Of a stretch of DNA of 64,000 nt, positions 19,462 through 61,700 are shown one piece after another. This stretch comes from Callorhinchus milii (lineage: Eukaryota). The notes below the pieces were generated by a model that did not search any database, was not told where the DNA came from, and worked only from the letters and a program-made list of their open reading frames with translations. The stretch is taken from contig NW_024704743.1 in the NCBI RefSeq assembly GCF_018977255.1, forward strand, positions 22,322,001-22,386,000, read 5' to 3'. Position 1 is the first letter of the stretch; every line of letters begins with the position of its first letter. A program made the translations under genes and the position numbers.

Positions 19462-20313
19462 ATATAGTGGCAGAAACACCATGTCCATGAAAGTTTGGAA
19501 GAGGCAGTAGGGAGACATACTCAAAAATATCTATGAGTGTTGCATGGACAGCATGCTACACCTTCTACATGGGGAGGAGGGAGCAAGAGGAGAGAAAGAG
19601 AAGGCATATTGATTTACAATATGTAGCATCCATCTGACTGCAGGGCGAACATACACGCGATACATCTTTGGGTATGTTTTGTGGATTTGCCCATCTGATG
19701 TATACATTACATCAACTCAAAATACAGCTATTGCGGGGGATTCCCTGATGGCCTCTTGAATAAAGGCATCGTGGTCAAGGTTCACACAGTGAGATACCGG
19801 AGACTGCTCGGTGACACAGGAAAAGGATTTAGGAGTCAAATTGTTCTAATTAATTATTGATCAAGATTTCAGGGAACAATTACGCCACTGTTCCATTAAC
19901 TTCTTCTCTGCATTCAGGAGAGAATGAATGATTCCTACATATTGTGACTCTAATTCAGTGGAAGAGAGGTGATACTCTCACCAAAAAAGAAGCTCAAAAT
20001 GTATATTAGGGAAGCATTTGAAATCCATGTGCGCTGCTTGGGCCAGTATAAAAGAGATGATCACAGCATTCCTGAAGGATAAAAAAATAATCTTGAACTG
20101 GAAAGGAAAAGAAGAATAACACACGCATAGAGCGACAGCCTATTTTATAGTGTTATAGCCCTATCATTACTAACAACCATGAGAAGTAGTTAATACCAAT
20201 GCAGGATGCATTTGCCCCAAATGCAATATAATTCTGTATTCAACCAACACAGCCTTCAGGACCTAGCTAAACATACTCAATGTAACACAAGTCACTTGTC
20301 TCACCAATTAACT

Positions 20314-22980
20314 AACAACAACTTGCATTAAAATGGTGCCCTCCAGGCCGGGTGGCGTCTCAGAGCGCTTAACAACTGTGGAGCCCGAAGCTGAGCCAGG
20401 GGGAGGGGGAAGGTGACCCGAGGCGCGGTCGAAGAGGAAGGTCTTCAGGCGCAACCTGAAGATGGGGAAGGAGAGGGTGAGGCGAAGGGGTTGAAGGAAG
20501 GAGTTCCAAATTTTCGGGGCATAGTGGCTGAAGGCACGGCCGACACGGAGGAGGCCGGACCCAGTAGAGCAGAGATAGCAGGTACTGCTGTGGGGAGAGA
20601 GGAGGTTAGAGAAATAGGGGGGGTGCCAAGGAATGGAGGGATTTAAACACTAGAGTGAGGATCTTGAAGTCGATCCGCTCTGTGACAAGGAGCCAGTGGA
20701 GTTTGGCAAGGACTGGAGTAATCGGGGTATGAAGTTTGGTGCAGGTGAGAATGCGAGTGATAGAGTTTTGAATGAGCTGGATTTTGTGAATAGTGAAGGA
20801 GCGGAGAAGACCGGTGAGGAGGGCATTAGAGTAGTCCAGCCGAGAGGTGACAAATGCATGGACAAGGGTTTCGGCAGTTTTTGGGGTGAGGTATTGTCTG
20901 AGACGGGTAATGCGGCGGAGGTGGAAGAAAGCGGTGTTGGTCAGGGACCGTATGTGGGGGAGGAAGGATAACTGGGGATCGAACCTGACCCGTAAGTTGC
21001 GCATGGGTTCGGAGAGTTTTAAGGACAGGTCAGGTAGGTCGAGGAGGTTGGAACTGTGGGATAGAAGATGTCAGCGGGAGCCAAAGGGTCTGGCCAAAGG
21101 GGTGAGGTAGTGCCGTAGTCTGGCAATGTTCCGGAGGTGGTGGAAGGCGGTGCCAGTTGTGGCGTGGATGTGGGGAAGAAAGGACAACTCAGGGTCGAAC
21201 AGAACCCCGAGGTTCCTGACCGGCTTTGAGAGGTGGAGAGTGCAGCGTTGGATGCTGATGCTGTCAGCGCCTGAGGTGCGGAGGCGCTGACGCGAGCCAA
21301 CCAGGAGGGCCTCAGTTTTACGCACGTTGAGCTGAAGAAAGTTGTCTCTCGTCCAGGACTCGATGTCGGACAGGTAGGCTGTCAGGACATCGGTGGTCGT
21401 GGAGTTGAGGGTAGAAGAGAAAAGGTAGAGTTGGGTGTCATCCGCATACATGTGGAAGTTAACCGCATGTCTGTGGATGATGTCACCAAGGGGGAGCATA
21501 TAGAGGGTGGCCAAGTTTGGAGGGATCAAGGGTAGTTTTTTAAGGAGGGGGATGATGACCGCGATTTTGAGGGGGAGTGGGACTGATCCTGAGGACAGAG
21601 ACTGTTTAATAGTGTCTGCCAGCGGTGGACTGAGGAGGGGGAGCTGGGTGATCATCAGTTGGGTGGGAAGGGGTTTGAGGCAGAAGGTGATGGGTTTCAT
21701 TGTGGTGATGGTGGATGAGAGGGAGAAAGGAGAGATGGGGGCCGTGGTAGGAGCTGAGGGCGGGGTGGGTACGGGAGATGGAATGTAGATGGCGGGAGGT
21801 GACACGGGGCAGAAGGATAAAGCTGTCAGGCGGATGTTGTTCATTTTAGAGGTAAGGAAGTCCATGACCTCTTTGCACTTGGCATGTAATGTGATGATTG
21901 AGACTTCTTGAGGGGTCACACAGAGAAGGTGGTGGGGGGTGGAGAATAAGATTTTGGAGTTATTGTTGGCCAGTATGATATTTTTGAGTAGTGCGCAGTT
22001 TTTGCTTGCGACAGGGAGTGGCGGTAGGTGTGAAAATGCTCGAGCCACAGCTGGTGGTGAACCATGAGGTTGGTTTTATGCCACCAGTGCTTGAGCAGCC
22101 GGGTTTGGGATTTTATGGAGCGGATATGGCTGTTGTACCAGGGGGAGGGGGTGGGTTTGGAGACGGTCCTCGATTTCACGAGGGAGTTGAAGGTGGAGGA
22201 GAAGGAGATGAGGAAATGGTCCGAGATGGCCTTGTCCGTGATGCACAGGTCGGAAATGTCAAGGCCATGTGTGATGACAAGGTCGAGGGGGCGGTCACGG
22301 TTGTGGGTCGGCGAGTTGATGTGGAGGGTGAGGTTAGGGAGGAGAGGAGGGCAGTGAAATCTGAGGAGGTGGTGCAAGGGGAGTTTAGGTGGAGGTTGAA
22401 GTCCCCCATTATGAGCAGGCGTTTTGAGCAGAAGGACAGAGAGGAGAGCGGAGATATCAGAGAGGAAGGAGCCAGGGGGTTTTGGGGGGCGGTAAACCAG
22501 GAGAATTTTGAGTGAGAGAGAAGAGATATGGTAGAGGGTGAGGTGCTCAAATGAGGAGAAGCAGCCAGAGGAATAGGGGGATAGACCAAGGGAAGCTTAG
22601 GAGATGAGGGCCACCCCCTGGCACGTTGGTTAGGGCGGGCGGTGTGGTGGAAGGTGTTGCTAGGGGGGAGGCATCAACTAGGGGGACGGAGTCACTGGGG
22701 GAGAGCCAGATTTCCGTAAGCCCAAGAATATCCATGTGCTCATCCTGGATAAGGTCATGGATAGTGAGGGCTTTATTGGAGAGGGAGCCGACGTTTCGTA
22801 GGGAAATGCGGCTGAGTTTGCTGGTGGGGGGGTTGGAGGAGAGAGTGGTACGGAGAGGATTTTGGGTCATAGCGGAGAGATGACTGTGGAGTTTGAGGAG
22901 GGGGAGAGTTGGAGAGGGTATGGATGAGGAAGGGAGAAGAGGTGTTTGTCTTTCGAGCTGTTGTCTAACTGCTCCTCTAT
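20314..22980 (-). mobile_element. Composite L2 LINE: APE endonuclease remnant, deleted RT, second L2 3' part
   Basis: [55 protein letters not shown]; (TTG)n tail. Confidence 0.95.
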
Positions 22981-24879
22981 GTTTAACTATGTGGCTCATT
23001 TATTCTCTAACTTCACAGAGACCAGAGTCAAAACCTGATCGCTATGGCACAGAGTATGCACATTACTACAACATCCCCCAAAACCAAGGATTTATCGCAC
23101 TTGCATTTGAGGAAGACATCAGCTGAACAGAATGTCGGTGCTCGGTCACCGTTGCACTGGATACCCTCAGATGTCAGCCGAAACGACTGGCAGTGCCCAC
23201 CTATTGGCTTTACCGGGAGAGACCTCAAACTGCAAATAGAATTCCTGAGCCTAGTGCAAAACAAACCAAACCAGGAAAACAGGAACACACACAGCAGCCA
23301 CAGTGCAGGAAAGCTGGCTGTATAACTGTGAAGCTCTCTACAGCTGTGAAGCGGCTGGAGCAAGCAAAGCCAGAAGAAGCCGGTGGGAATATTTGTTCGA
23401 TTAATGAACGCATTTTAGTACAATTTTGGCAAATGATTAAGACACACAGGTATTAGTTTATCAGAGCAGCAGTGATTGGCAGTCTTGAACAATCTGATTT
23501 ATTTCTCCTGTTCAAATACAGATTAAGAAAGATTCTACACTCAAATTCATTAGGTCTCGCAAGCATTTTAATGAGCAAACATTTTACATGTGGGAACAGG
23601 CAGAACATTGGAAGGAATATTTGAAATAATTCTAGTGTGGAATTTAAAAGCACTCAATTGGAGACTATCTCAGATCTGTGCAAAGCAGTCTTAAAACAGC
23701 AGCACACAAAGAGCATTGAATGCAATGGCACGTTGAGACTGGCCAATAGCTTAGATGGAAGAGAAGCCAAGTCCCATTCTTTGTTCCACAAAATTCAGTC
23801 ACTGTCTTGCACAGTCTCGAAAATCCCATAGCTTTCATGATGGGTGAAATTTATTAATTCTTGGTATAACCGAGGGAAGAGACACTTAGGCTAGTGGTGC
23901 ATTCTGACTATGAGAATCACTTGGCTGGAACAAAGCAGAATCAACGTGTTCTTCAGAAGTCATTAGCTCAAACCATTCTGCTTTCCCCAAGGTCAAGCAA
24001 GACCCTGGGAGGGACAATCTTTGGAAGGAGATAAGGACAAAGAAGATAAGCACGCAACAGTGTGGGCAACATTGGGAAAAAAAGGAGAGCTGTAAAAAAG
24101 ATGTTTTTGCAGGCAGCTTAGAGGGAAACATGAAGAGAAAGATGCACTTGAACAAAGACAAAAGGTCTATGGCGAGGATTTTAAAGCCAAAAAGGATGCC
24201 TGAATGAACCATTTTTGTTGGTGCAAGTATAGGGTCTAATATGCAGCGATTTCAAACAGAATCCATAACTGGGGATTTCTTCCATTGACCCAAAAAAATC
24301 ATGCGGATCCATGGGAGCTCAAACTCCGATCCGAAATCAGATCGTGTGAGAGCATTGCTGCCGTGAACAAGCATCACTGCCATCAATCAGCGTAGTATAC
24401 GTCCAGTTTCCTTGCTCGAAGAATGCAGTGTGCAAATCACAACTCACATTTATCAAAAATAGAAGTGCTGAAAATCGTAACAACTGAAAGAGTCGTAACT
24501 AGGGGAAATTATTCATTGATGGCTCTGCCCTCTCTTGTTCCTGTATTATGCGGTTGCAGAGTAATCTCTGCATTCCTCAGTTTTCATTACGTGGTCCTTT
24601 CTATATAAATGTACACGAGAAAATATTTCAAATTGAAATTATGATAACTAACACACACCAAAAGCTGAGAGTTACTTCAATACTCCAGACTCATGTGAGG
24701 CTGCCTTTCATGTCTCTCCTCAATCGATGGGCGGTTATCTTGAAAATTTCTTAGCGAGAATGTCAAATTACAGTATGTCCCTATGTAAAGTACAGCTCAC
24801 ATCCTCCAGCAAGCTGGCGGGGTGGGGGGGGGGGGGGGGGTTGCCCAGTATCCTTGTGGATGGGACCAGTTGGATTGAA

Positions 24880-43500: not shown

Positions 43501-44102
43501 ATGGCACTTATTTGAAAAAGAGAATGGCGGTTCTCTGGTTGCCCTGCCTAACAATCGCCCAAAATAAAAAAATACCAATATTAATTTCACAGCTATTTGT
43601 GGGACATTGTTGGGCACAAATTATCTGGGGGATTCAGCTGCAAATTCACAGCAGCTGCCCTTTACAAAATAATCTATGAAGCTGTTTTGAGATTTTTGAT
43701 GTGATCAGATACGATATCAAATGCAAGTATTAACATCATTATCCACCTCCCTGTTAAACATGCTGATCGATTCTGCAGTTACCTCATTCGAGGGCAACAA
43801 TAATGTGCATTTACATAGCACCCTTCATGCAGAATAACGTATGGTCAATATAAAATGGAGGGTTTGAACTTTTTCACAGGAGTTACTATTGCAAAATTTG
43901 TTCTTCGCTCATTGCCCTTTACATTCACAGAACAAACAGGCATTTCTGCTTTCAAAACCAGCACTTTTTGCTTTTGATTTTTTGCCTGGAAAGAAAAAAA
44001 AGTTTCAGCAACTGCATGTGAACAAATCAAAAAGGTAGAATCATCTCGCTTCTGATAGAAAGCTACCATCGCAGATAGGAAGGACATACAAACTCTTCTT
44101 AC

Positions 44103-44180
44103 CTGATCTATTTCCATCAGCTTGGGAAAGGCCCCAGGCCATTCGATGGCCACCTTGACAGAGTCCGACGGTGGTGGCAT
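44103..44180 (-). CDS. ELMO1: ELMO coding exon 1: MPPPSDSVKVAIEWPGAFPKLMEIDQ (exon 44103-44231 includes 51 nt of 5'UTR)
   Basis: ATG at 44180; donor CAG|GTAAGA; acceptor ttttccttcag before 44231; matches the ELMO N-terminus. Confidence 0.96.
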
Positions 44181-44201
44181 CCTGCACGTTTAGACTCTCG
44201 C

Positions 44202-44225
44202 TCAAGGCTGGTGCAGGAATCTCAT
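44202..44225 (-). promoter_or_regulatory. uORF MRFLHQP* in the ELMO 5'UTR
   Basis: ATG at 44225, TGA at 44204-44202, ending 21 nt before the main ATG. Confidence 0.6.
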
Positions 44226-45104
44226 CCGACCCTGAAGGAAAACGCACGCAGGAGAGACAGAGAGATAGTCAGCTTAGCAAATCCATTCCGTCCTTGTGTT
44301 TTATTTCCAATGCAATAAAGTTCTGATAATCACCACATGGAAGAACTGAATACCACTCCATTACCAATTCTATGCACCAGCCACCTCACTACCAGTTCTT
44401 TTTATCAGCCCATGATATATATATATGTATCATATATATTCAAAATATATTTTGTTTTAGAAAAGGAGAGTGTTTTGGAGGGATGAACAACAAATTAACA
44501 ACAATTACATTTGGATAGCTCCTTTCACGTCAGGAGAACATCCCAAGATAACCCAAGGCAAGGAGAAATGGAGTAAAACCAAGGGATTTAGGGAAGAGTG
44601 CTGGAGCACTAGTTCGTGACTCATTTATAAGAACATAAGAAATAGGAGCAGGAGTAGACCATTCGGCCCCTCGAGCCTGCCCCGCCATTTAATAAGATCA
44701 TGGCTGATCTACTAACCTAATTCCATTTACCCGCCCTATCCCCATATCCCTTAATTCCTTTAGTTTTTAAAAATCTATCAATCTCAGTCTTGAATATGTT
44801 CAATGACTGAGCATCCACAGCCTTCTCGGGTAGAGAATTACATAAATTCACTACCCTCTGAGCGAAGAAATGTTTTCTCAACTCAGTTCAAAAGGGCTGA
44901 CCTTTAATCCTGAGAATATGACCCCTAGTTTTAGATTCTCCAACCAGGGGAAACAGTCTCACACTATCTACTCTGTCAAGACCCTTAAGAATCTTATAGG
45001 TTTCTATAAGATCACCTCTAATTCTTCTATATTCTAGAGAATATAGGCCTAGTCTACTCAACCTCTCCTCGTAGGTCAACACACTCATCCCAGGAACCAA
45101 CCTA

Positions 45105-45735
45105 CTACAACAACAACTTGGATTTATATAGCGCCCTCCACTCCGGATGGCATCTCAGAGCGCTTCACAATAACAGATCCCGGGGACGAGCCAGGGGGAG
45201 GGGGAGGAAGGTGACCAAAGGCGCGGTCGAAAAGACAGGTCTTCAGCCGAGACCTGGAAACATGAAGAGAGGGGGTGAGGCAAAGAGAGTGAGGAAGGAA
45301 GTTCCAGAGCCTCAGGGAGTAGTGGCTGAAGGCACGGCCGCCAATGGTGGAGTGGCGGATTCGGGGGACAAGGAGGTGGAGCCGGTGGAGCGAAGACAAC
45401 GGGACTGTTGTGAGAAGAGAGGAGGTCACAGAGGTAGGGGGATGCAGAGGAGTGGAGGGATTTGAAGACAAGGGTGAGGATCTTGAAGTCGATCCTCTCT
45501 GGGACAGGGAGCCAGTGCAGTCTGGCAGGGACTGGGGCAATCGGGGAGCGGAGTTTGGTGCGGGTAAGAATGCGGGCGGCAGAGTTTTGGATGACCTGGA
45601 TTTTATGAATGGTAGTGGAGGGGAGATCGGCGAGGAGGCGTTAGAGTAGTCCAGCCGAGAGGTGACAAAGGCATGGACCAGGGTTTCAGCAGCTTTTGGA
45701 GTGAGGTATTTGCGGAGACAGGTGATGTGTCGGAA
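45105..45735 (-). mobile_element. L2 3' fragment nested in CR1
   Basis: AETLVHAFVTSRLDY...LKTCLFDRAF; tail like the 20314 copy. Confidence 0.9.
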
Positions 45736-46083
45736 CCTACGTTGCATCCCCTCTAAGCCGAGTATATCCTTTCTAAGATAAGGAGACCAAAACTACACAC
45801 AATATTCCAGGTGCAGTCTCACCAAGACCCTATACAATTGCAGCAAGACTTCCCTACTCTTGTACTCTAACCTTTGCAATAAACGCTAACATGCTATTAG
45901 CCTTCCTAATTGCTTGCTGTACCTGCTTACTAACTTTCTGTGATTGGTTTACAAGGACACCTAAATCCCGCTGAATACAAATACTATCTAATCTCTCCCC
46001 CTCTAGAAAATAATCTGCTTTTCTATTTTTTCTACCTAGGTGAATAACTTCACATTTCCCCACATTATTCTGCCACCTTCTTG

Positions 46084-46403
46084 GTGGTGTCCTGTAGCTC
46101 AGTGGTTGAGCACTCGCTTTGCAAGCGAGAGACCTGAGTTCAATTCCAGGCAGGGCGAAACCTTGGGCAAGTTTCCTTACTCCACACGCCTAATAATAAT
46201 CCCTCCAAAACCAAAACAATAATAAATTGGTCATTTTCAATCCACGACTGTTTGTGGGACATTGCTGTGCGCAATTGGCTGCCGCGTTCGCCCACAAATA
46301 TACAGTCAATTCACTTTACAGTGTGTTCTGTGAAGCGCTTTGGGACGTCCTCCCGACGTGAAAAGCGCTATATCAAATGCAAGGATTATTATTATTATTA
46401 TTA
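46084..46403 (+). mobile_element. Full-length young tRNA-SINE nested in CR1, with 6-bp TSD TTCTTG
   Basis: TTCTTG at 46078-46083 and 46404-46409; near identical to the 1963 and 55049 copies. Confidence 0.92.
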
Positions 46404-47554
46404 TTCTTGTTCACTCACTTAACCTATCTATATCCCTTTGCATCTTCCTTGTGTCCTCCTCACAGCTTACTTTCCCACCTAGCTTTGTATCATCCACAAA
46501 TTTAGATACATTAAGCTCTACTTCCTCATCTAAGTGATTGATGTAGACTGTAAACAGTTGAGGCCCAAACGCCGATCCTTGCGGCACTCCACTAGTCACA
46601 ACCTGTCAATCTGAAAAGAATCCATTTATCCCTACTCTCTTTTTTCTGCCTGTTAAACACTCTTCGATCTATGCTAATATATTACCCCCTAATTCCTTGA
46701 GCTATAATCTTATGTGACAACCTTTTAGGTGGCACCTTGTCGAATGCCTTCTGAAAATTCAAGTACACTAGATCCACTGGTTCCCCCTATCTAACCTGCT
46801 AGTTACATCTTCAAAAAACTCTAAAAGATTTGTTAAACACGATTTCCCTTTCATAAAACCATTGACTCATTATTATGACTTTCTAAGTGACCCAAGACTA
46901 CGTCCCTAATTATAGAATTTTTCCTACCACCGTAATTAGTCTATAGTTCCCCATTTGTTCTCTTCCACACTTCTTAAATAGCGGTGTTATGTTTGCGATC
47001 TTCCAATCAACGGGAACCATTTCAGAATCCAGGGAATTCTGGAAGATCAAAAACAATACATCCACTATCTCTGCAGCCACCTCTTTTAAAACCCTAGGAT
47101 GCAGGCCATCAGGTCCAGGGGATTTATCAGATTTTAGTCCCATCAATTTCTCTAGTGCTATTACTTTACTGATATTAATTTCTTTAAGTTCCTCACAAAC
47201 ATTAGTCTCTTGGTTCCCCACTATGTTTGGTAAGTTTTTAGCATCTTCCAACGTGAAGACAGAAGCAAAGTATTCGTTTAGTGACTCTGCCATTTCTTTA
47301 TTCCCCATTATAATTTCTCTTGTCTCTGCCTGTAAGGGACCCACATTTACTTTTGTTAATCTCTTCTTCTTTATATACTTGTAAAAGCTCTTACAATCTG
47401 TCGTTATATCTCCAGCTAGTTTATTCTCATCTTCCATTTTCTCCCTCTTAATCATTTTCTTGGTTATCTCTTTGCTGATCTCTAAAGCCCTCTCAATCCT
47501 CAGGTTTCAGATCTTTTTGGCAATATTATAGGTCTCTTCTTTTAATTAAACAGG

Positions 47555-47890
47555 CAGATCAGGGAGAGAAAAGGTGTGTCTTGGTCCCAGACACACCTTT
47601 TCTCTCCCTGATTTGTGTGGTTTGTTGCAAGTTTTCTTTCCCCCCATCTTTGCTCTGCATCATTAACACCTCTTTAACCCATCATCCCCTGTCTCTACCC
47701 CATTTTCTGCTTTGTCTTCCTTGCCCTGCCCCCCTCCCACCCTTTCTGTTTGCCCTTAAAAGCCTCTCCCTCCCAACACGCCCCAGTCCTGACGAAGGGT
47801 CGTGGACCCGAAATGTTGACTCACTTTCCTTTCTCCATAGATGCTGCCTGACCTACTGAGTGTTCCCAGCGACTTCTGTTTCTATTTTAC
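47555..47890 (+). mobile_element. Penelope-like element pLTR fragment with a terminal inverted repeat
   Basis: ctgacgaagggtc...gacccgaaatgttgac...agatgctgcctgacctactgag block typical of aquatic-vertebrate PLEs; 24-bp inverted repeat at the 5' junction. Confidence 0.75.
47785..47821 (+). ncRNA. Minimal type I hammerhead ribozyme motif (PLE-associated)
   Basis: Stem I agtc/gact, core CTGACGA(+A), stem II gggtc/gaccc, GAAA, U-H cleavage site after 47817. Confidence 0.7.
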
Positions 47891-47909
47891 AGTGTCAGCC
47901 TGGCTTAGT

Positions 47910-48430
47910 TAACAACAACAAAATTACATTTATAGAGCGCCTTTCACGTCGGGAGGACGTGCCAAGGCACTGGACAGTCAGGGGTCAGGACCCGAGCATG
48001 AGGGAGGGGTGGGGTAGGGGTGAGGGAAGGCAGAGAGGTGGGAGAGCGACCGAAGGCACGATCGAAGAGGAAGGGCTTGAGACCGGCCTTTAAGGCGGCA
48101 AGGGAGGAAGCGAGGCGAAGGGACTGTGGGATGGAGTTCCAGAATGTGGGCAGAGAGGCTGAAAGCCTGTCCACCGATGATAGGGTGGGTCGGGCGGGAG
48201 ACATGGAGCAGACCGCCCGCTGAACAGAGGGAGCGGGCAGGTTGGTAGGGAATCAGCAGGTCAGAGAGGTAGGAGGGGGCAAGGCCATAGATGGCCTTGA
48301 AAGTGAGGACGAGGATCTTGAATTCGATCCTCTAAGGGATGGGGAGCCAGTGGGAGTGGGGTGAGGGTGGGAGTGATGGGGTCACGGAGCCTGGTGCGCG
48401 AGAGTACACGAGCTGCAGAGTTTTGGATTC
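47910..48430 (-). mobile_element. L2 3' fragment
   Basis: IQNSAARVL..., LKPFLFDRAF, (TTG)n tail. Confidence 0.88.
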
Positions 48431-48772
48431 TACACTCTTGCTTAAGACTCAAAAGATTGTGGATTCAAGCCCCAAGACAAGACTTTGAACTCACAGTCTA
48501 GGCTGACACTCCAGTACAGTGCTTCGGCTAAGAAAATAAACCAAGGTCCCATCAGCTTTTTCAGGTGAGACTAAAGATCCCTTGACTATCAATCCTCCAG
48601 AGAGAAAAAAAATGATCATTCATTTCATGGCTGTTTGTGGGACACTACTGCGCCAAAATCACCTGCCCCATTCATCTACAAATACAGCCACTACACTTCA
48701 CAGAAAATCTTGTAAGTGCTTTGAGATGTTGAAGACGTGAGCTGCATTAAATGTAATTATTATTATTATTAT
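48430..48772 (+). mobile_element. Old Deu-SINE
   Basis: ggattcaagcccc head, ggctgtttgtgggacact core, (ATT)n tail. Confidence 0.7.
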
Positions 48773-49879
48773 AAATAATAAGCAGGGCATCAATTCACTT
48801 TGAAATCCTGCACTCTTGTCCAAGACTAGTAGGTCTCAGACAAGTGTCACTTGCACTATAAGACGTTTTAAGAGTCACAAGCTCAGATGAAACAGGTCTC
48901 TTCTCCCCCCTCCCATGTTCACCATCTCCTGACGCACGCGGACACACACACTCACACAATGCACCTTCCCACATACACACACACAGTGCCAATCCCCACA
49001 CACATGATGCCAATCCCCCACACCCCCATGCACACACATATTTGGTACCAGCCCCCCCACACACTCAGTACAGCATCCTCTTGCCCCCGCCCCTCCCACC
49101 CACTACACACACACACACACAGACAAAGGGTATAAGATAAGATAGAGCAGGGAACTGGATTTAGAGTAGATACTTCCAGTGGGGAGCAAGCAACAATGAT
49201 CACAGTGGGCCCAATGGCCTCCTTTCTGTCTCTACGAATAATCTTTGTATGATTCTATGTAATTGTGGCCTCTTCAGGGGTTCACACCCCCCAACAAAAG
49301 TGTGCGAGTGAAACTGCAGCTAGTGAAAAATGTCTCGATGCAGTCAGGTTCAGCACAAAGCAAACGGAGCAGCGGGATGCTCTCAGCAGCTCACTTCCTG
49401 AGTTTACTCTACCCCAACCGTTTTATTTACTGTTACATTCATGCTGGAAATCTGAGAAACCCCAGCACTATTTTGCAGTCTTAAGCGCATGGGATGTGCG
49501 AAGAGAACTTGAAATCAGATTTTTTTGAACAAAAAGATAGGATTTTAAGGAAAGTTTATATGCTCCAGAGAGGCTGCTAATGTGTGAAATCCATATTCTG
49601 CTATAGTTACTCTGCTATTTTAGTAGAGAAAGAAAGGTCACTTAGCACATCCCACCCCTCCAGAGAGATCAGCACAAAATCCTTGTGAAAGTGCAAGAAA
49701 TTAATAACCGTAGCCCAAAATATAAGAAATGTTAAACTAGAATTTAAAACCTTACTCTCTCTCTCTACGAACACCATTCATTTCAATCCTCTTCTGGTGC
49801 AATGCGCACTGCACTTTTAGCCAGCTTGACCTTTTTTGAGGTGACTGCCCGAATTGATTCTGGGAAGCCATGTGATGTA

Positions 49880-50885
49880 TAGCTAGACACTCCAAAAGGC
49901 ATTGGATAAAACATTTCATGAAAGACTCCCTCGCAATCTGTGGTCACCGGGTATCAAGACTATGGACATGGATTCAGAATTGGCTAGAGGGAAGGAACCA
50001 GAGGGTCTCGGTTAGGGGAGCTAAGGTAAAATAGGGAGAGGGACTAAGCGGGGTGCCTTAGGAGGCAGTATCGTGACTCCCCTCCTGCCCTTGTATATAC
50101 TGGTAGTGCTAGATAGTTTTTTTGAATATGATTTGCATTTCACAGTCACCCTGGCTCAGTGGACTCCGTGTAAGATCTGCAGACCCAGAGTAAGCTGAGG
50201 GGGATGGGGTTGGGGGGAGGGGGGTGGGGAGAGACGGATTATGGAATCAGAGGAGGCAGCAAACGTCCAACAAAGGGACCTTGATAGGGTATGCATATGG
50301 GCCAATAACTGGCAAATTAATTTTACTACTGATAAATCCTATATATAGGATCGATGAATAGGAAAGCCAAGTCTCCATGGATGGGATTGAAATTGCCAAG
50401 GGGGAAGCTGAAAGAGATCTAGGGGTGTTAGTTAACTCGTCGCTCTCTACAACAAAAGAGTGTGAGACAACAATAAACAAGGCAACCAGAATACTGGGCT
50501 ATATTGCGCTAAATCAATTGAGTTTAGACTTGCCCCCCTCTTTCCCCGTTTTCAGATCACTCCTGAGGACCTTCCCCATCGACTGTTCCTATGGTCACCT
50601 CCCTCTGACTTAGTCTCGGCTCCACCACTGTGGGACCATATCAATGCAAGTTGTTGCTGTAGTTTAGATCCTGGATGTCCTACTCAGACTGTACAGTGGT
50701 CTGGTCAGACTGTAGTTTGAATATTGAATACAGCTCTGGTCATCACAACATGCGGGGGTTGTCCAAGCCATAGAGGCAGTGCAGAGGAGAGCAACAAGGA
50801 TGATCCTTGGTGTTAGAGGAATGAGCAACAACTGGTTCTTCAGTCTTGAGAGAAGACGACTCAGGGTACCTTATAGAGGTGTACA
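49880..50885 (+). mobile_element. Old CR1 ORF2 fragments with a nested L2 end (~50525-50660)
   Basis: ERDLGVLV, KATRILGYI, QRRATRMI, FSLERRRLR. Confidence 0.8.
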
Positions 50886-51899
50886 AATAGTGAGACAGTG
50901 CTGTATCACAGGGCATTATAACAGGCTTCCCTATATGCACCACCTATCAAGTGTAGAAACTGTACTTTCAGTTTGCTGCAGTACATTTGTCCGCAGGTTA
51001 TGAAGTGAACAGAAATGGACTATTATAGACTATTCCATATCATAGTTCTGGGAAAGAGATGAGAAGAGTATTTTATTGTACAATATGATGACAGTTTTGC
51101 TAATTCTTCTCTGACGGATATAGTGTTTTGGGATAAGGCGGGGAGGAGAAGGTTAAGCAAACAAACAGTCCAAACACTATTTAGAACTCCTCGGCTCGAA
51201 CTTAGTGGCATTCAGCATCACAATAATTAAAGCTGGTCTATTTGCAACCTCCCCTCTGGGGCTCTGTTTGTGACAATTTGAAGTTGCATTCCACCTAAAT
51301 GGAAATCTCTGTAGATCAAATGAATACCACAACCCAAAAATACTCACTGCTCCACATGAATTATGGAAACAAACAATTTAAAACTGCATTTTATTTGACA
51401 AACATCTCAACAAGTCCAATTTAGTAGGAGGAGGTGATAGTGGGAGTGGGGAGGGTTGCGGTTGAGAAAATAGAGAGAAAAAATTAGTTTTTTCCTCCTA
51501 CATTTTGCACATTTACTTTTCATGCTCGTTTTTTTTGTATATGAATCATCTCTCTCTCTTTTTCCCCTTCCCCACGGGGCTCTACGTTTCCCATAGCAGA
51601 CTGCATCAGATGATACTGTATTTCGCTTCTTATATAGTTCTCTTCCAAAAGAAGGTATGGTCTCAGCTACAATCACAGAATGCGAGGGAGACAGATGGGC
51701 TTCTCCATCCTCTCTTTTTCCTACTCTCATGAGGCATTGCGGGCATAGATTGACTGCTCCCTCCACCCATCATCATAGACTGACCAGAGACTGACCACCA
51801 TCATAGACTGACCAGCCTGAACACTCCACCATCATAGACTGACCACTCCATATATATATATATACAAGCCCGTAGTATAAATGTTAACCCTGCAAACCA

Positions 51900-52240
51900 A
51901 AGCAACAACTTTCTTAAACCTTACCAACCCACCCACTCCCTCTGCTTGACAGCACTGGGCTGCTTCACAGCCACTGCCATGCCCACCCCACCATCAGTGT
52001 CGGGCTTTTAGCCTCTCTGCCACCACCCTCTGGAACTCCATCCCAAAGTCCCTTCATCTTTCCTGGCCTCCTTCAAGTTCCGTCTTAAAACCCTTGCTCT
52101 TTGACCGTGTCTTTGGTCATCTTTCCCCCACACCCCCTTGACCCCCACCCCTCTCAAATGCCCCCCCAGCTTGGGTTCAAACCCTCACTGGGACGTCCTC
52201 CCGAGATGAAAAATGCTATATAAATGCAATTTGTTGTAGT
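51900..52240 (+). mobile_element. L2 3' end fragment
   Basis: ctctggaactcc...ctctttgaccgtg...; tail gggacgtcctcccgagatgaaaaatgctat. Confidence 0.8.
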
Positions 52241-53352
52241 ATTCCCTACTAGTTATACACAATCTTATGCGACTTCTGATGGAGACAAATAACCTTTTTT
52301 AAAGCACGTTATCACCACTTTGTATCTCAAATATTTGTCTCTCAGTATCTCAAAATGTTTACAAGTAATCTCAGTCAAGTGCAGTGACTGCGTTTGTAGG
52401 CAAATGCCACAGTGAATGATTGCGGAAAGGAGAGTACAAGACAGTGTGATGAGCTTAATGCAACATTTGCCACAAAGAAATCCAAACAGAGAGCTAAAGC
52501 TTGAACGTGCGAGAAGCAGCAGCGATGGTGAGGAGCAACAACCACAACTTACATTTATATAGCAAGGCAGCGCCCCACAGTGCTCGAAGCACTGTCTCTA
52601 ATTGAATCGCTAACTCGACCACTCGCCCTGTATAAAGCGTTCAGTCCAGCTCAGCTGCAGGAACTAACACTGCAGTCAAGAGCAAAGGTCTGGATTGTAA
52701 CCTGAGGCAGCGGGCAACACAACAAACTCTTTGGATCAGAGAGCGGTGCTGACACTGCGATAGCCTATCACTGTACCTGCTGTCGTTTCTGCTTCAATAC
52801 CCTCTGTCGGGAACTTGCTCAGACACTTTTCTGCAGCAACAAAGATCTCAGTCCCAAATGCACAACCGCTGGCTGAGCAGCAACAGAAGCAACTGAAAGT
52901 TGGATTAGTTTACAAAAGGTGAAGGACTCAAAACAGAGCACACAAGAGCCTACTTTAAGCTGAGTGCAGGTCGCTGACAGAAGCCGGCTGCTGACACAGG
53001 AAGGAATGCATTAGAAAGTGATGCCTTTCATCAGCCCAATAATTGCCATGACTGTAATTGAATCCGCGATTACCCTGGGAACACTGTCCAGGAACGCCAC
53101 CTTTATAATAATAACGTTCATCTCAGATTTTCTGGCGCTTAAAAATAAAACCTCATCTCTGGGGTGTGGTCTCACTTACAAGTGTTAGTTTGAAATGAGG
53201 ACCTGCCCGCCCTTTTCACTCTAGAGGCAGCGAGAGATGCCAGATCAGCAGTCGCTCAATCAGTTTTGGCCAAAACAAAGTGGCCTCCCACCGGTCGGTC
53301 CTCTTTCACTGATTAATCCGCTCCCATCCTCTCCATTCATATCACTTTGGGC

Positions 53353-53733
53353 AGTCCTGTAGTTCAGTGGTTAGAGCACTAACCATGCAAGCGAGAGACC
53401 CGGGTTCGATTCCCGGCAGGGTGAAACCTTGGGCAAATTTCCTTACTCCACATGCCTGATAATAATCCCTCGAGAAAAAAAAAGCAATAACAATTTGGTC
53501 ACTCAATCCTCGACTGTTTGTGAGACGCTGCTGTGCACAATTGGCTGCCGCATTTCACCCACAAATAAAACAACAACAAAATTACATTTATAGAGCGCCT
53601 TTCACGTCGGAAGGACGTCCCAAAGCGTTGTCAATATACGGCCTAGTCACGTTGCAGTATATTCTATGAAGCGCTTTGAGACGTCTAGAAGACATGAAAA
53701 GCACTATATCAAATGCAAGGATTATTATTATTA
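53353..53733 (+). mobile_element. Full-length tRNA-SINE with an antisense L2-tail insertion (~53569-53632)
   Basis: Head, core and tail as in other copies; inserted aacaacaac...gacgtcccaaagcg. Confidence 0.88.
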
Positions 53734-55048
53734 TCACCATCAGCACAGGGCTTGACTAAGTACCTCAGGGACAGCTCTCGTGCATTGACAGGTACACTCC
53801 CTCCTCAGCCAGTGGCTGCCTCAAGCAAAGGAGAAAGCAGTTTGACAAAAGCAAAAGACAACAACAACAACAACAAAATCACATTTGCATAGTGCTTTTC
53901 ACGTCGGGAGGATGTCCCAAGGTGCTGAGACAAAAACATGGGAAGCGGGGAGGTGATGTTTGCCATTTAGATATTTGCTGGTGCAATGAAAACCCACAAG
54001 TTACTCATTCTGTTTATTTATGTAAAGACAGAAGTGGAGAAATCCAATTAAAAAGTGGTGCAAGACACAGCTTAGCTAGGTTTAGCTTCAGCGTCCGTTT
54101 ACGTAAAGGTTACACACTGCCACTAACAGAATTGTGCAGGGTGTGGGAGAGGGGGAGGGGGCAAGAGAACAGGAAAGAGGAAGTAAAGTATTTCTCTCAC
54201 TCACAAGGCATCCTCCAGGCTTGAGGTTTCAAACACTCCAGCTACCAATAAGTGAAACACTTCCCCCTCGTTTCTGATGCTTTGCAACTCCCAAGGTGGT
54301 CACAAGAAGCATTCGGTTGTAAATTGGCTGCCACATTTACTTACAACTGCACGGTCACTATGCAAAGCCCCAATACAGCCAATGCTGTGTTTGACAGCAA
54401 CCACCTGTGAATTCTTTGAGACATCATCAAATGCAGAGGCCTGTTTCATTTAAGTTAGTAATGCTGTCATTTGCAAAGGTGTGTATTGACATCAGAGTGT
54501 GATGTCCACTAGATAACACCGACCGGGCAGGGAGGTTCGATCGGCAAGGTCCCATACACAGCGGCTTTCCAGGCTGTCGAGAGTATCGAGACCTGCAACT
54601 CCCCTTTTTCACCATTGCGTGGGTGCACGCAGTTACACACCCACTCTGCAACACACCGTAACAGACCCACTGTATAACAAACCCACTCACGCACTGAACA
54701 GTATCACATGAACTCACATATTGAAACAGACTAACTCTCACGCTGAAATGAGCTGTGACGCTCTGTACCACATAAACACACACAGATTCAGCAGATTTAA
54801 CCAGATTCTTCTTGAAAATCCAACCGATCATCTTCCCATTACAGCATCAGCTGCACTTCACCCACAACATATACAGTCAATTCACTTTCGAAGACGTGAT
54901 AAAGCGCTATATCAAATGCAAGCATTATTATATTATATAAAGTACATTCTGGGGCTGTCCTAAACTTGCCTTGTACAATTATTATTTTTAGCAATCAGAG
55001 CTCGGATTTATTGTATACACTTGGAATTAACACACTGAAGTACTCAAC

Positions 55049-55370
55049 AGTCCTGTAGCTCAGTGGTTAGAGCACTTGCTTTGCAAGCAAGACACCTGGG
55101 TTCAATTCCAGGCAGGGCGAAACCTTGGGCAAGTTTCCTTACTCCACACAGAGCCTAATAATAATCCCTCCAAAAACCCAAAACAATAATAAATTGGTCA
55201 TTTTCAATCTACGACTGTTTGTGGGACATTGCTGTGCGCAATTGGCTGCCGCGTTCGCCCACAAATATACAGTCAATTCACTTTACAGTATATTCTGTGA
55301 AGCGCTTTGGGACGTCCTCCCGACGTGAAAAGCGCTATATCAAATGCAAGGATTATTATTATTATTATTA
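55049..55370 (+). mobile_element. Young tRNA-SINE, possible TSD AACAGT
   Basis: Near identical to the 1963 and 46084 copies; aacagt at 55046 and 55370. Confidence 0.92.
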
Positions 55371-55619
55371 ACAGTGCCATATAAGGACAGCTCGGGAGGC
55401 TCAGAAACAAACACACGTTCACCATGTCATGAAGGATGTAAGGGCCAGCCAGCCGTCCATCTATTTAGCATCGAAAGACTGTGCTTTTCGAGATGGCTGA
55501 CTGACAAACAAACAAAGCACATGCAATATTTCACATCAGGCTCAGGGCACAGCAGAAGTGTGCATACGAGTGTTCACTTGCTCACAACTACCTTCGTATG
55601 GCAAGAGAGGTGATCAGCA

Positions 55620-55890
55620 ACGTTCAAATAACCAAATCCAGATGAGTGAGCCAGTGGATAGTTTCGGAAGCGGCTTGGTGTAAGTCATGCCAGTAAATGA
55701 TCCAAGCAGGCACTGATTTTACAATGTAGTTCTTAGTCTGCGACTGGTGGCCACAGTCCCATTGTGCGTTGTCTCTCCCCCTCCAGAGGTGTAAGAGATG
55801 ACCGCGTCTGTCATGTGATGTTTTGAAATAGTTCAATGACGATCATTGTTTCTGGGGTGGGTTGAAGCCTGGAAGTTCTTTTGTGAAGTC
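55620..55890 (-). mobile_element. Vingi/Ingi-like non-LTR retrotransposon C-terminal relic
   Basis: LPGFNPPQKQ*SSLN.FKTSH.R..HLLHLW...WDCGHQSQT..YIV...HQA..ETIHWLTHLDL resembles the degraded CCHC-bearing C-terminus of Vingi/Ingi ORFs. Confidence 0.6.
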
Positions 55891-55974
55891 AGCAATCTGG
55901 CATTTGTTTAGGACCATTAGTATTATCCCAAAACTCTTTCCAGTATACCTCAGGATTGAATGAAGGCACTTTAA

Positions 55975-56758
55975 GAGGATGCACACTCCACCTCATCGAG
56001 CCAGTCCGGTATCTTTGGTACCTTGTTTGACCTTCAACTGTCCTTTCTACCCCACATCCGTGGCATGATCTGCTTTGCCTTCCTCCACCTCCGCAACATC
56101 GCCCAGCTACCGCCACTGTTTCACACCATAGGCCATCGGGACCTTCACATACGCATTCATAACACCCAGGCTCAACTACGCAAACTCCCTGCTTGTCGGC
56201 CTCCCCAACTTCTCCCTCCAATGGCTGCAGATCATCCAGAGCTCTGCAGCCCGTGTCCCCTCCCGCACTAGGCTCCGTGACCCTGTCACCCCCATCCTCG
56301 CCCGACTCCACTGGCTTCCCATCACACAGAGGATACAGTTCAAGATCCTGGTCTTCATTTTCAAAGCACTCCATGGCCTTGCTCACCTCCTACCTCTGTG
56401 ACCTCGTAACCCCTTACCATCCTGCCCGTTCCCTTCGCTCAGCAGGCTCTGGCCTGCTTCATGTCTCCCGTCTCGCCCCCCCCCACCATCGGCGGGCGGC
56501 CTTCCGCCACTCGGCACCCACACTCTGAACTCCATCCCGCAGTCCCTCTGCCTCACCCCCTCCCTTGCCTCCTTCAAGACCCATCTCAAGACCTTCCTCT
56601 TTAACCGTGCCTTCGGTCACCCTCCTTCCGCCCCCTGCCCTCCACCCTCTCCAATGCCAACCCTCAGCTCGGGTCGAAACACTGATTATCCAGCGCCTTG
56701 GGACATTCCCCAGATGTGAAAGGCGCTATACAAATGTCATTTTGTTGTTGTTGTTGTT
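55975..56758 (+). mobile_element. L2 3' fragment
   Basis: FDLQLSFLPHI...LRNIA, LHWLP-type region, FKTHLKTFLF, (TTG)n tail. Confidence 0.92.
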
Positions 56759-57009
56759 AAGAGCATTAGTCCACACGCACTCTGTAATATACTTACTCAC
56801 TTACTGATGTGGACTTCTGGATGTGTGCCTAGGTATAGCCCTGCAGGAACAGGGGAGATAACAGGGTTGAGGAAGTCTCCCACAGACTTGCTCAGACAGC
56901 TGTAGGCAGAGCATGTTGTGCAACCAATTACAAGAGGAACATAGTCTGGTTATCACACAATCTCTATTGTCAGCATTTGGATGACTAGGGCTCTTTTACA
57001 CAAAACAGC

Positions 57010-57460
57010 AACGCCTCACCATACAGGAGGTAGATAAGATGCTAAATGACAACTGGAAAATAAACCCAGAGCAATGTGCTCCGGTGCTCCTAGACAGCGA
57101 GACGGGAGGGCAGAGATTCAGGCTAGTGTAGAGCAATTTATAAACAAACAATGTTAAGTATTTCTTCACCCAGAAAGTGATCATGAACTGGAACAGCTCA
57201 CCAAGAAGATCCAACAACAACAACTTGCATTTACATAGCGCCTCTCACGCAGAGAGTTTGACTGTGGCGGAGCAACACTCCGAGCCATGGGCTAGGCGGA
57301 GGTGACTGTAAGCACGGTCCAAGAGGAATGTCTTCAGGTGCGACCTGAAGATGGGGAAGGAGGGGGAAAGGCAGAGGGATTGAGAGAGAGTGTTCCAGAT
57401 TTTCAGGGAGTAGTCGTTGAAAGCACGGAACCCAATGGTGGAACGTAGAGCATGAAGGCC
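57010..57460. mobile_element. Old CR1 fragment (+, 57010-57210) followed by an L2 3' end (-, 57213-57460)
   Basis: ttcttcacccagaaagtg...tggaacag; FRSHLKTFLLDRAY. Confidence 0.7.
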
Positions 57461-58139
57461 AATTAAAGTCCCAAACCTCACAGTTTCCTGCTTGAGTTGG
57501 GGTTTTTTCAGCGTGGCTGACAGAACTTTTCGGGCAGCCTATGGCAAGCCAGCCATCTGGAAGTGCTTGTTTCATCCACATCCTTGTATCGTGGGGCTTT
57601 GGCAAAGAGCTGAAATGAAATCTTTTCATTTTATTAAACCAGATTGTATTTCTTCTCCAATCAGCACAAGGTCAGAGCTGGAATTCTCTCCCCTCGTGTC
57701 ACTTACTGTCTTGCTGTTCTCTGAATCCTTTCTAATGCACCAATGTCCTTTTGAAGGCAGGATGCCCACAACTGTGTGCAAGCTGTCATTCTACACCCCA
57801 GAGGTAGGGGTTGCAATCCCAGGAATCACAATCCCAGGATCTGGCTTGCTAACGGTGCTCCTAAAATCCTGGGATTTATAGAAAATAATCCTGGGTATTT
57901 GGGGTATCGGGCTGAGCCCTGGCGGAAGGGTAGGATGATCATTTCCAAGGTTGTAGCACACAAATGGAATTTGTTGTGATTGGGTCATTAATAAATATGC
58001 ACTGTGTCAATGCATCAATGGAAATCCCAAATCAATTTCAATAAATAAATTCAGTCTTTCAAGAAGGGAAATAACTTAGAAGTTTGACTGAGATTTAAAT
58101 TGTTGACGTCAGAGGCTTGTGGGTCTCCAAAGAAACGAC

Positions 58140-58715
58140 GCAGCAATTGCTGCACAGCAATGTCACACAACCAGTCGTGAAGCCAATGCCAACTTTGTCT
58201 GGAGGACTGTTGGCCAGGACTCAGGAAATTACTCCCTTCTCTTGTCAGTGTCACAAGATCTTTAAAAATCTGGAGGGTGGATCAGTAACCAGAGGACACA
58301 GATTTAAGATGATTGGCAAAAGAACCAGAGGGGAGGCAAGCAGAATTTTTACCCATAGAGGTGTTACGGTCTGGAATACATTGCTTGAAAAGGTGGTGGA
58401 AGCAAATTCGATAGTAGCTATTAAAAGGGAATTAGACAGGTACTGAAAAAGAAAAAAAATTGCAGGGCTATAGGGTAAGAGCGGGGGAGTGGGCCTTGTT
58501 AGTGCTCTTTCGAAAAGTAGGCACAGACACAATGGGCCGAATGGCCTCTTTCTGTAAGATTCTATGATCCCGTAAGTCCACCCATGCGGGCAAACCGGAC
58601 CTCTGTTTAACATCATACCTGCACTAGAATGTCAGCCACTAACCCAGTCTCGATGTGGGGCTTGACCGGACAATCTTTTGAGCCATTGATGAGAGTGCTA
58701 ACAACTGAGACAAGA
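58140..58715. mobile_element. Deu-SINE (-) split by a CR1 3' end (+, ~58250-58570)
   Basis: TRGHRFK...WNTL CR1 end with ATTCTATG; SINE pieces on both sides. Confidence 0.8.
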
Positions 58716-61700
58716 TGAGCTTAAAGGAGTTAAGTGGTTGATGTTCATAACTCATTTGATTTTCACTCCTGTCGTTTAAGAAGTCATCAGAATCACTAGA
58801 CTGAATTTCTGCCTTATTCTGACTCCTGCCCTTTTCCCTGGAGCACAAAATCATGGAGCACTCACCACCAACAAGTAAATATCCATTCATTTCACATGAC
58901 AAAGTGTGTCTGTCACTAATCACCACTCAAAGCATACATTCATGTCACTTTTTTCATACTTTTACTATTGCAATTCATCTGGAATTCATAGGAAAAATTT
59001 ACTTGGAGATCAGTGTTCCGAATTAGTTTCCATTCCTGACATTTCTATTCATCACAAATTCAACCCGATGGAGACAAAAACACAACATGGTACATTTGTC
59101 GATACCATTTTAAAAAAAATTCTCACAATGGCAAGGCCAGCCGTTATAGTCGGGAGATTAACCGCACCTTTTTTTTTCAGTGGCAGCCAAGACCAGCGCA
59201 GTCTAAGGGCGAAAGCACACCATGCCTGTTCACTGCTTCTACCAGGATATCCTGTCAAAGAGAACCAACATTCTCTGCACAGGCCCAATTAAGATGCGTT
59301 ATAAATAGCATTGCATCTTCACCAGCCTCACCAACCGCCGCGACAGGATTCTGCACAAAAAAACATAAGCCTCCAAATGACTTACAATTTCATGTCCCGA
59401 TCGACTGAGACACGTTCGATCCCTTCTTGTGGCAAAGGAATTCAAGAAGCTGTCACGCAGCTACCAAGCTTACGACTGCAGCCCGGTAGTTTTCAAAAAG
59501 GAAGTGAGGCTTACAACACTGCACTGGTTAAAGGAAGCTGTTTAACAACTGAAGAAGGCACTGCAACGGCAAACCTGCAGCCACGGCAGGAGCAAGGCGT
59601 TCAGTTTCAAACGGCAGGCGAAACCGAGTCAATTGCTGCCATTTCAAGAACTACCCTGCTTGATAAACAAAAATAAAAAGCTTTCAGCAATTCCAAATCT
59701 ATACGTACAGAGAGAGAGACCATTTTTACTGATGAGAAACAGTTTACGAGAATTGAATGTATACATAAGCTGATTAATTGTGCGTGTGGTGTGGGTGAGG
59801 GAGAGGAATCGGACACTGCGTGCATATAAATACACACTGATTTAGTGTGTCCGCGTTTAACTTTACTCTAGGTTATGTACTTATTTTTAAAATGTTTTTC
59901 TCTCCCACCTCGAACTGACATTCTATCTTTGCAAGTCGCTGTTTGTTTCAATGCCCGGTTTAGACTGCAAGCTCTCTGATGACGTTGCCAAGGTGGGCCG
60001 ACACACAGTGATAAAGAGACATGCTCTGTGTCTGCGCCGTTGGTTGAACTCTGGACCATCCGATGCCTCTTCTGCTGAGGTCCGAGTCCGGGACTAAACG
60101 GACTCAGTCCCGGACTCAGTCACTGTGGAACCGGGAAGGTGGGGGATGTGAACGCTGAGGAGCAAAGCAGCCAGACATTCAGGAAAAGCTCCAGGTCTCC
60201 TCTCATGTCATTCATGTTGGGAGAAGACAATAAACCAGGAAAGTACCAGGAATTTCCAATATAAAGTCCAGATAATAATCATAACTAATCATAAAACAAG
60301 TGTACGGCTTTCCAGTTTATACACAGAAGGTATTGCTGCTTACTTCATAGTTCGTTAACAGTAAATGATGTTAAATGACTCTCAACTTATGCTAATGCTT
60401 CTTTTATCGACAACCGAAAAGCAGCAGCTTTAAGTGAGCTGGTTGCCAGAGTTCATGCAAGAGTAAATACATTTGATCAATAACAAACTTGCGCCCTGGA
60501 ACTGCAGGACTTCAGCACTTCTCTGCCTGGTTTGAGCTTTCTCTTTCTGTTGTGCGTTTCTCAAGATAAGAGAAACCAATGTCCGAGTCAAGCCTGAGCA
60601 GATACAGAGATAATCACTCTCTATTCTGTTCCAACAGTGAGCCTTAACCACAACCTCAGAGCAACCTCCACTGCACCAGTGAGACATTTCCTGCACTATC
60701 CACAATTGAAGTGAATAATTGCTAATTTGCCATTGATTTATGCTAAGCTGGGAGCAGTTCTGTGCTGCAGCCCCAGCCAAGGTTCAGCTAGACCAAAGTG
60801 AATTTGCTTTCACTTAGAAGTGCCAGAGACTGAACCCATTCGTCTGAGATGGGTTCAAATCAACATCTAAGGGGGGTCAAAAAGCAAGGCTCCAACTCAG
60901 CACCAAGCAATCCCAAAGAAGGTTTTTCTAACAGATCACGAGAGGTTCAGATGAAGGATATAGTATATAGGTAGAGACATATGTGCATGTGACTGCCAGG
61001 AAGGTGAAAGGCAAACAAGATGGACTTTGGTCTTTTCTTCATCTAGCATTTCTTATATCCTTATGCCCTCTGGCCTATTTGATTTCATACCAACCCTACC
61101 ATCTTGCAATTATATCATTAAGTTGTTTTTCAAATAGCTAATATTCTGGTCTCCATCCTTTCTGGGTATCCATTTGGGCTGTTCATTACCCTCTCCCTCT
61201 GTGTAAAGAAATATTTTCCAGGGTCTGTCCTCAACTTGTCCTTCAGAGCCCTGAACCTGTGCTCTCCTATCCAATTACTTTGGTGTACTGTAGCGAAATA
61301 ATTCAGCAAGACCATGTATCAAAGAAAGTAGAGCAAAGGGAGATGAAAAACCAAAGTAGCAGTCAGGGGAACAATATCCTATTGGCTAAAATAGTGCTAT
61401 TTCCTTTCAAACTACAGTGTACAATTTCCAAACTATCACTATTAGGATATCATGAGGTCCTGGTCTGCATTGTCACATGATGTGGGTTAAGATTATTTAT
61501 ACTTTAAAAATTATTTTCCAAGTATGGGATCCAAGAACAAGAATTGAACATTATGTCTATGACCTGGCCAACAGTCCCCCGAATAAAAAAGTTGGTCTTT
61601 TTTTCAGTCTGTTTGTAGGATATTGCTGTGTGCAATTGGGCTTTCGCTTTCACCTACAAATATACAGTCACTCCATTTCACAGTAAATCCTGTGTATCCC

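Follow-up and report, generated by a model that had tools for sequence, protein, structure and literature searches.

The stretch analysed here (the window, 64,000 nucleotides of the Callorhinchus milii genome) carries ELMO exons on its minus strand and, in an intron of that gene, the end of a Penelope-like element bearing a hammerhead motif on the plus strand. The exon that codes for the N-terminus is closest to ELMO1 (E 2e-11, versus 8e-9 for ELMO2). The relevant parts of the gene are:

44103..44231, minus strand: first coding exon of the ELMO1-like gene, with the ATG at 44180
44232..59385, minus strand: 5′UTR intron into which the element is inserted; the preceding exon ends at 59386

Does the motif truly lie in an intron? 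Contigs of runs X2 and X5 (two of the four runs compared, both from one study and of putative RNA) pass from 44231 into a unique sequence that ends at 59386, and a GTAAGT donor follows the exon end at 59386. Because these contigs join the two exons, the motif, 3.6 kb upstream of the ATG exon, is intronic. The sequence-only reading, which had placed it in an intron and antisense to ELMO, is thus borne out: the intron is a 15.1-kb 5′UTR intron, the host gene is on the minus strand and the motif on the plus strand. Run X1, unlike X2 and X5, joins a different, mixed upstream sequence at 44231-44233, possibly alternative first exons; a search of the window for X1's other upstream end did not find it. 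Run X3 gave no matching contigs.

Other repeats occur in the window. A tRNA-derived, SINE-like repeat occupies 46088-46403 (Rfam tRNA match 46088-46158), and near-identical SINE-like copies lie at 2096-2292 and 55174-55370. Broken LINE-like ORF pieces, which we take to be CR1- and L2-like, are found on the minus strand at 46913-47506, 14105-14632 and 20311-22999. A Pfam search of the first of these, which the Penelope piece adjoins, returned no match.

The motif itself spans 47785-47821 (37 nt, plus strand), and every part listed by the sequence-only reading was found there:

47785-47788, plus strand: 5′ strand of stem I, AGTC (family majority AGTT)
47789-47795, plus strand: core CTGACGA (C3 to A9), against the published consensus CUGANGAH
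47796, plus strand: extra A between positions 9 and 10.1
47797-47801 and 47805-47809, plus strand: 5-bp stem II, GGGTC and GACCC, closed by the 3-nt loop GTG
47810-47813, plus strand: GAAA (G12 to A15.1)
47814-47815, plus strand: vestigial stem III, TG (CG in the family; CpG decay)
47816 and 47817, plus strand: T47816 is U16.1 and T47817 is U17, giving the triplet GUU
47818-47821, plus strand: 3′ strand of the 4-bp stem I, GACT

The predicted cut falls after 47817. A canonical stem III is absent, as just two nucleotides separate A15.1 from U16.1. The palindrome at 15.1-16.1, ACGT in 30 of 57 family copies, reads ATGT in the window copy. Specific to this copy is C47788, by which the pair that closes stem I changes from U-G to C-G.

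What kind of hammerhead is this? The portions of Cervera and De la Peña 2014 (PMC4209133) drawn on here describe minimal type I hammerheads in the pseudo-LTRs (pLTRs) of metazoan Penelope-like elements, laid out as CUGANGAH, a nucleotide between 9 and 10.1, G10.1-C11.1, GAAA, a palindromic 15.2-16.2 and NUH. They occur as thousands of dispersed single copies; the monomer is inactive and multimers are weak. The window copy has the CUGANGA, GAAA and U16.1-H17 of this core, together with the extra nucleotide at 9/10.1 and the G10.1-C11.1 pair (G47797-C47809). Its layout therefore fits the published consensus, and the assignment to minimal type I hammerheads with an extra nucleotide holds. The 4-bp stem I, the dispersed single truncated copies and the place after the ORF are all shared with the class, and the layout of the oyster row is almost identical (PMC4209133). 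Unlike that class, the window copy has lost the palindrome. A search of that paper's searchable supplement found no cartilaginous-fish term.

The motif sits within an insertion at 47548-47888, the 5′-truncated, 5′-inverted end of a Penelope-like element, probably of Neptune type:

47548..47578, minus strand: inverted 5′ arm, which folds back on 47585-47615 in a head-to-head junction typical of Penelope-like insertions
47579..47784, plus strand: 3′ UTR sequence of the Neptune-type element; in longer copies it follows the end of the GIY-YIG ORF
47822..47888, plus strand: remaining pseudo-LTR, which stops at the first of two zones where the 3′ ends of family copies fall

An optional tail of about 35 nt is missing from this copy, and no target-site duplication was found for it. 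Rfam matches of miRNA type at 47557-47613 score under the gathering threshold and correspond to the fold-back junction hairpin; we set them aside.

What ties the repeat to a Penelope-like element? The genome contains 2,660 exact matches (control 0) to a 26-nt family motif that lies downstream of the hammerhead, so that the family numbers at least 2,660 copies. Among 3,131 candidate copies, the best 39 other than the window copy are 89-92% identical to it. Of 29 other loci selected for the endonuclease region, every one matches 47579-47888 wholly or in part. Upstream of this shared sequence a CX2-5CxxC linker is found in 16 of the 29 decayed longer copies; YCxxC is found in 24 and Y[IT]GET in 20. 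Pfam GIY-YIG matches to longer copies have E values of 0.0012 and 0.0094, both below the Pfam cut-off, and the two His of the CCHH-type endonuclease residues were recognised by eye. In locus L012 the motif lies about 325 nt past the ORF stop, and in locus L280 the 3′ part of the pLTR and the tail continue into ORF-side sequence. The hammerhead repeat is linked to a GIY-YIG ORF, and its Penelope-like origin, as first proposed, stands. Loci L040 and L044 contain, again by eye, what we take to be RT motifs; a Pfam search of the element's RT pieces gave no match. The one RVT_1 match falls on a stretch resembling a flanking LINE.

An inverted partner was flagged for 64 of the 110 short copies. Copies end in two 3′ zones about 35 nt apart, at approximately 47880-47890 and 47910-47925. 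Both are published marks and support a Penelope-like insertion. Those parts of Craig et al. 2021 (PMC8557442) that we used give the Neptune order as RT, then a CX2-5CxxC linker, then a C-terminal GIY-YIG, with 5′ truncation, an inverted 5′ partner and an optional 30-40 bp tail. In the family described here 5′ truncation, inverted partner and optional tail are all present and the domain order is the same; here, however, the domains are recognised by motif, and all copies examined are broken, none with an intact ORF. The linker motif is what suggests the assignment to Neptune.

In what state is the window copy? Our sample, chosen solely by the downstream motif, comprised 94 copies at 90 loci of contig C1. 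Of these, 57 could be read across the hammerhead motif without gaps; 49 belong to a main subfamily and eight to a second, subfamily B. Among the 49, 16 show decay of the stem III CpG (to TG in seven, to CA in nine); at three other CpGs the counts are 18, 19 and 19. Since the rate in stem III matches that at the family's other CpGs, the change to AATGTT is ordinary CpG decay, and the earlier view of it as a worn AACGTT is upheld. The accompanying suggestion, that the decayed palindrome might still pair through G-U, finds no support: TG is no commoner than CA (7 versus 9 of 49) and the predicted duplex energy is lost. For the 6-mer the predicted self-duplex goes from -3.5 kcal/mol (family) to +0.8 kcal/mol (window copy); the 4-mer values are -1.7 and +2.6 kcal/mol. 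An intact core and ACGT are both kept in just 16 of the 57 copies.

Folding was predicted in several contexts. For the window copy, stems I and II have a probability of about 0.85 in the motif alone and about 0.4 in an RNA beginning at 47785. With 40 nt of upstream sequence added the value is 0.02-0.03, where a family-type copy reaches 0.2-0.4. In longer context the value is near 0.02 for the window copy and a family-type copy alike. According to these models C47788 would strengthen stem I yet create a rival hairpin that favours a misfold. The argument is a modest one, since long context also impairs the predicted folding of the family-type copy. Non-CpG differences in 23 copies amount to 3.9% in the core, 8.7% in the stems and 9.9% in the flanks, a comparison from a small sample in which the core is A-rich; the 3′ flank alone, summed by hand over the same 23 copies, stands at about 5.7%.

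If the stems once mattered, do they covary? The alignment comprised 50 rows, the window copy and 49 of the 57 copies, eight partial or gapped rows being omitted. Of its 450 stem cells 88.4% are paired and ten are changed on both sides. Seven of those ten represent a single inherited change, G-C to A-U at 10.1-11.1 in subfamily B, which also has U-A for U-G in stem I. The covariation whose absence the sequence-only reading would have counted as a refutation is present between subfamilies, but most of it is one inherited event. It fits selection on the structure of the ancestor, through few events. Its absence would weigh little against that structure, since covariation is not expected among the decaying, dead descendants of a single master. 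Subfamily B, eight of the 57 copies, combines A10.1-U11.1, where G-C is usually conserved, with a different loop and the U-A that closes stem I. Its members are:

L064, L067, L072, L089, L104, L105, L111 and L119: subfamily B loci

We conclude that the window copy is very probably a decayed, inert fossil of a hammerhead-bearing end repeat, lying backwards in the intron of an ELMO1-like gene. It is one worn copy among thousands, of a kind already known from Penelope-like elements. Its intact core, the stronger closing pair given by C47788, the high stem probability when folded alone and the somewhat smaller variation of non-CpG core bases in the small sample weigh against the inert reading.

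Might it nevertheless be weakly active, cutting plus-strand RNA in trans-dimers with the RNA of other family copies, or with the help of a protein, and to no benefit of the host? The core, the GUU triplet and both stems are intact. Family-like sequence is abundant in contigs of the putative RNA runs; over the 20 kb compared, repeats dominate, so that these contigs are not assignable to this locus and carry no information on expression or strand. Protein-assisted cleavage is published for a related element in the parts of PMC11167929 consulted. However, the AUGU self-duplex is predicted to be unstable, minimal hammerheads are weak even as multimers in what PMC4209133 reports of them, and the examined copies showed no intact ORF. 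We regard such activity as unlikely. The proposal that the motif could cut antisense transcripts is likewise without support: no second family copy was found within the 64-kb window, and the monomer of the published class is inactive (PMC4209133, as far as drawn on here).

Co-option by the host, in which the window copy would destroy ELMO1 antisense transcripts in the manner of the amniote intronic hammerheads, is highly improbable. The site is a 5′UTR intron and antisense to the gene, and domesticated intronic hammerheads do exist (PMC6155905). But the copy's divergence from the family is like that of other copies, its CpG decay is the usual one, a stable stem III is absent, and a family of thousands would be expected to yield many intronic antisense placements. 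As described in the sections of PMC6155905 available, the amniote hammerheads (RECK and others) are likewise type I and intronic, but canonical and conserved across species; the one in the window is minimal, one of thousands, decaying and antisense.

A chance resemblance within a repeat has scarcely any likelihood: the bare core pattern does occur at chance level in the window (six matches versus 6.99 expected), and the suggested hammerhead search, made with Rfam over 44000-52000, returned no hammerhead family at E≤10, but the published class has the same place in the pseudo-LTR, the extra nucleotide, G10.1-C11.1 and the palindrome seen in the family, and the second subfamily keeps both stems through paired changes. 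With stem II included, the pattern has 922 matches in the genome of about 1 Gb versus none in the reversed control; a looser hammerhead pattern has 1,501 versus 23.

A second group of minimal hammerheads was also encountered. It makes up most of the matches listed among 3,091 genome matches (control 4) and is found at C14:17.40-17.42 Mb, C5:67.99-68.04 Mb, C75, C82 and C98 (L103, L164-L169). These hammerheads are densely clustered within simple repeats, many of the copies are identical, and a head-to-head arrangement in pairs is frequent; between their subfamilies a 6-bp stem II and stem I covary. The group closely resembles the lamprey Poseidon row in the available part of PMC4209133. No Penelope-like ORF of at least 250 aa was found in 60 kb of these clusters, and telomere hexamers were few. 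It is possibly a young family or one acquired by horizontal transfer.

Where do the copies of the main family begin? Among the 94 sampled, 38 start within the eight bases equivalent to 47782-47789, that is, at stem I, 15 of them at 47786. A further 38 starts are spread over the next 54 bases, one lies at the anchor and 17 copies extend further upstream. The pile-up at stem I has a binomial p of 7e-15; eight of its 38 members are from subfamily B, in which the upstream sequence may be different. A set chosen independently, by the core of the main subfamily, behaves likewise: of 61 copies, 37 start at 47784-47787, whereas 14 read through. It is to the read-through class, and not to the stem I starters, that the window copy belongs. 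Our search, mostly of literature outside subscription, found no published description of copies starting at stem I.

The base that precedes AGTT, where it is not C, is G in 50 cases, A in 29 and T in 21 (hand count over the first 100 of the 183 matches listed), an excess of G with p 5e-7 against base composition. In the independent set G precedes stem I in three of nine. The excess could reflect a copied cap, but part of it may come from inversion junctions and from duplicated bases of the target. Target-duplication-like words were seen in 17 of 46 non-inverted short copies, some of them spurious and many with extra bases. CCAGT(T/C)C at the start of stem I resembles what we take to be the initiator consensus.

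Starts at the cut site itself do not clearly exceed the background. One of the 94 copies begins at 47818 and one at 47819, the former proving on inspection to be an internal deletion. Genome-wide, 59 matches have a non-T before the cut site; of 30 inspected, 19 were point changes and 11 were labelled automatically as starts, of which at least five retain the upstream core by eye. Cut-site starts thus make up at most about 2% of copies, versus a background of about 0.75% per base. In loci L290, L291, L301 and L319 the 3′ half of the core is deleted between two GAC words, one in stem II and one in stem I, so that the copy looks as if it began at the cut site.

Could splicing produce the pile-up instead? 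The sequence CCCCAG followed by TTCTGA could be read as a splice acceptor, as for the intron of Drosophila Penelope, and exon-end bases could then mimic the starts at G, AG and CAG. We consider this less likely: inspection by eye showed no upstream exon shared by the copies, and the start is often directly adjoined by a target duplication. That 38 of 94 copies begin at stem I, and not at the cut site, suggests that uncut RNA was copied from its start. An RNA starting at stem I and copied uncut from internal sites is the simplest reading.

The sense strand of the pLTR has three splice-acceptor-like motifs (a pyrimidine run plus AG), at 47770-47786, at 47822-47840 and in the tail of other copies; one stands directly before the ATG at 47841. 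Such motifs could bias the orientation of copies in introns without any ribozyme activity. Motif matches on genome contigs divide 454/468, 770/731 and 1304/1356 between the strands, a parity that carries no information on orientation relative to genes.

How does this compare with known systems? The accessible part of Frangieh et al. 2024 (PMC11167929) concerns PAc, a Poseidon element of Anolis, whose hammerhead cuts only with protein and is dispensable for insertion. There, two internal starts of reverse transcription explain two 3′ ends, and uncut RNA is the main template. PAc differs in belonging to another clade, one without the linker zinc finger, and in that its ORF starts inside the hammerhead (PMC11167929); in the window element the first ATG past the motif stands at 47841. 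Non-LTR retrozymes, as the part seen of bioRxiv 10.64898/2026.07.22.740005 presents them, are also pLTR-derived, non-autonomous units with type I hammerheads. They form tandem arrays, whereas the window has one truncated copy in 64 kb, with part of the 3′ UTR.

What, then, might the ribozyme have done? In the active ancestor a type I hammerhead would have formed only through pairing of two copies at the ACGU palindrome, or with a protein of the element, and would have cut slowly after GUU. Reverse transcription probably began on a template of uncut RNA, at one of two internal sites roughly 100 and 135 nt past stem I. RNA begun at stem I would have given the many short stubs, and RNA reading through from the ORF the longer 5′-truncated copies, such as that in the window, which after insertion would have decayed neutrally.

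Tentatively, and with slightly less than even confidence, we propose that transcription starts at the first base of stem I and that the ribozyme forms the capped 5′ end of the element RNA. Internal starts of reverse transcription on uncut RNA would then give thousands of 'strong-stop-like' stubs of 100-140 nt. Cleavage would remove the cap and the first 33 nt, and the ribozyme would be a switch of translation or stability and not a cutter of unit-length templates.

The single copy in the window matters little, being retroelement debris of a described class. The start of copies at stem I is the fresher point, and it is one at the level of the family, where the pattern bears on the question of what Penelope hammerheads do. 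If the stubs begin at a cap site in stem I, the template would be uncut RNA, in agreement with one study in vitro.
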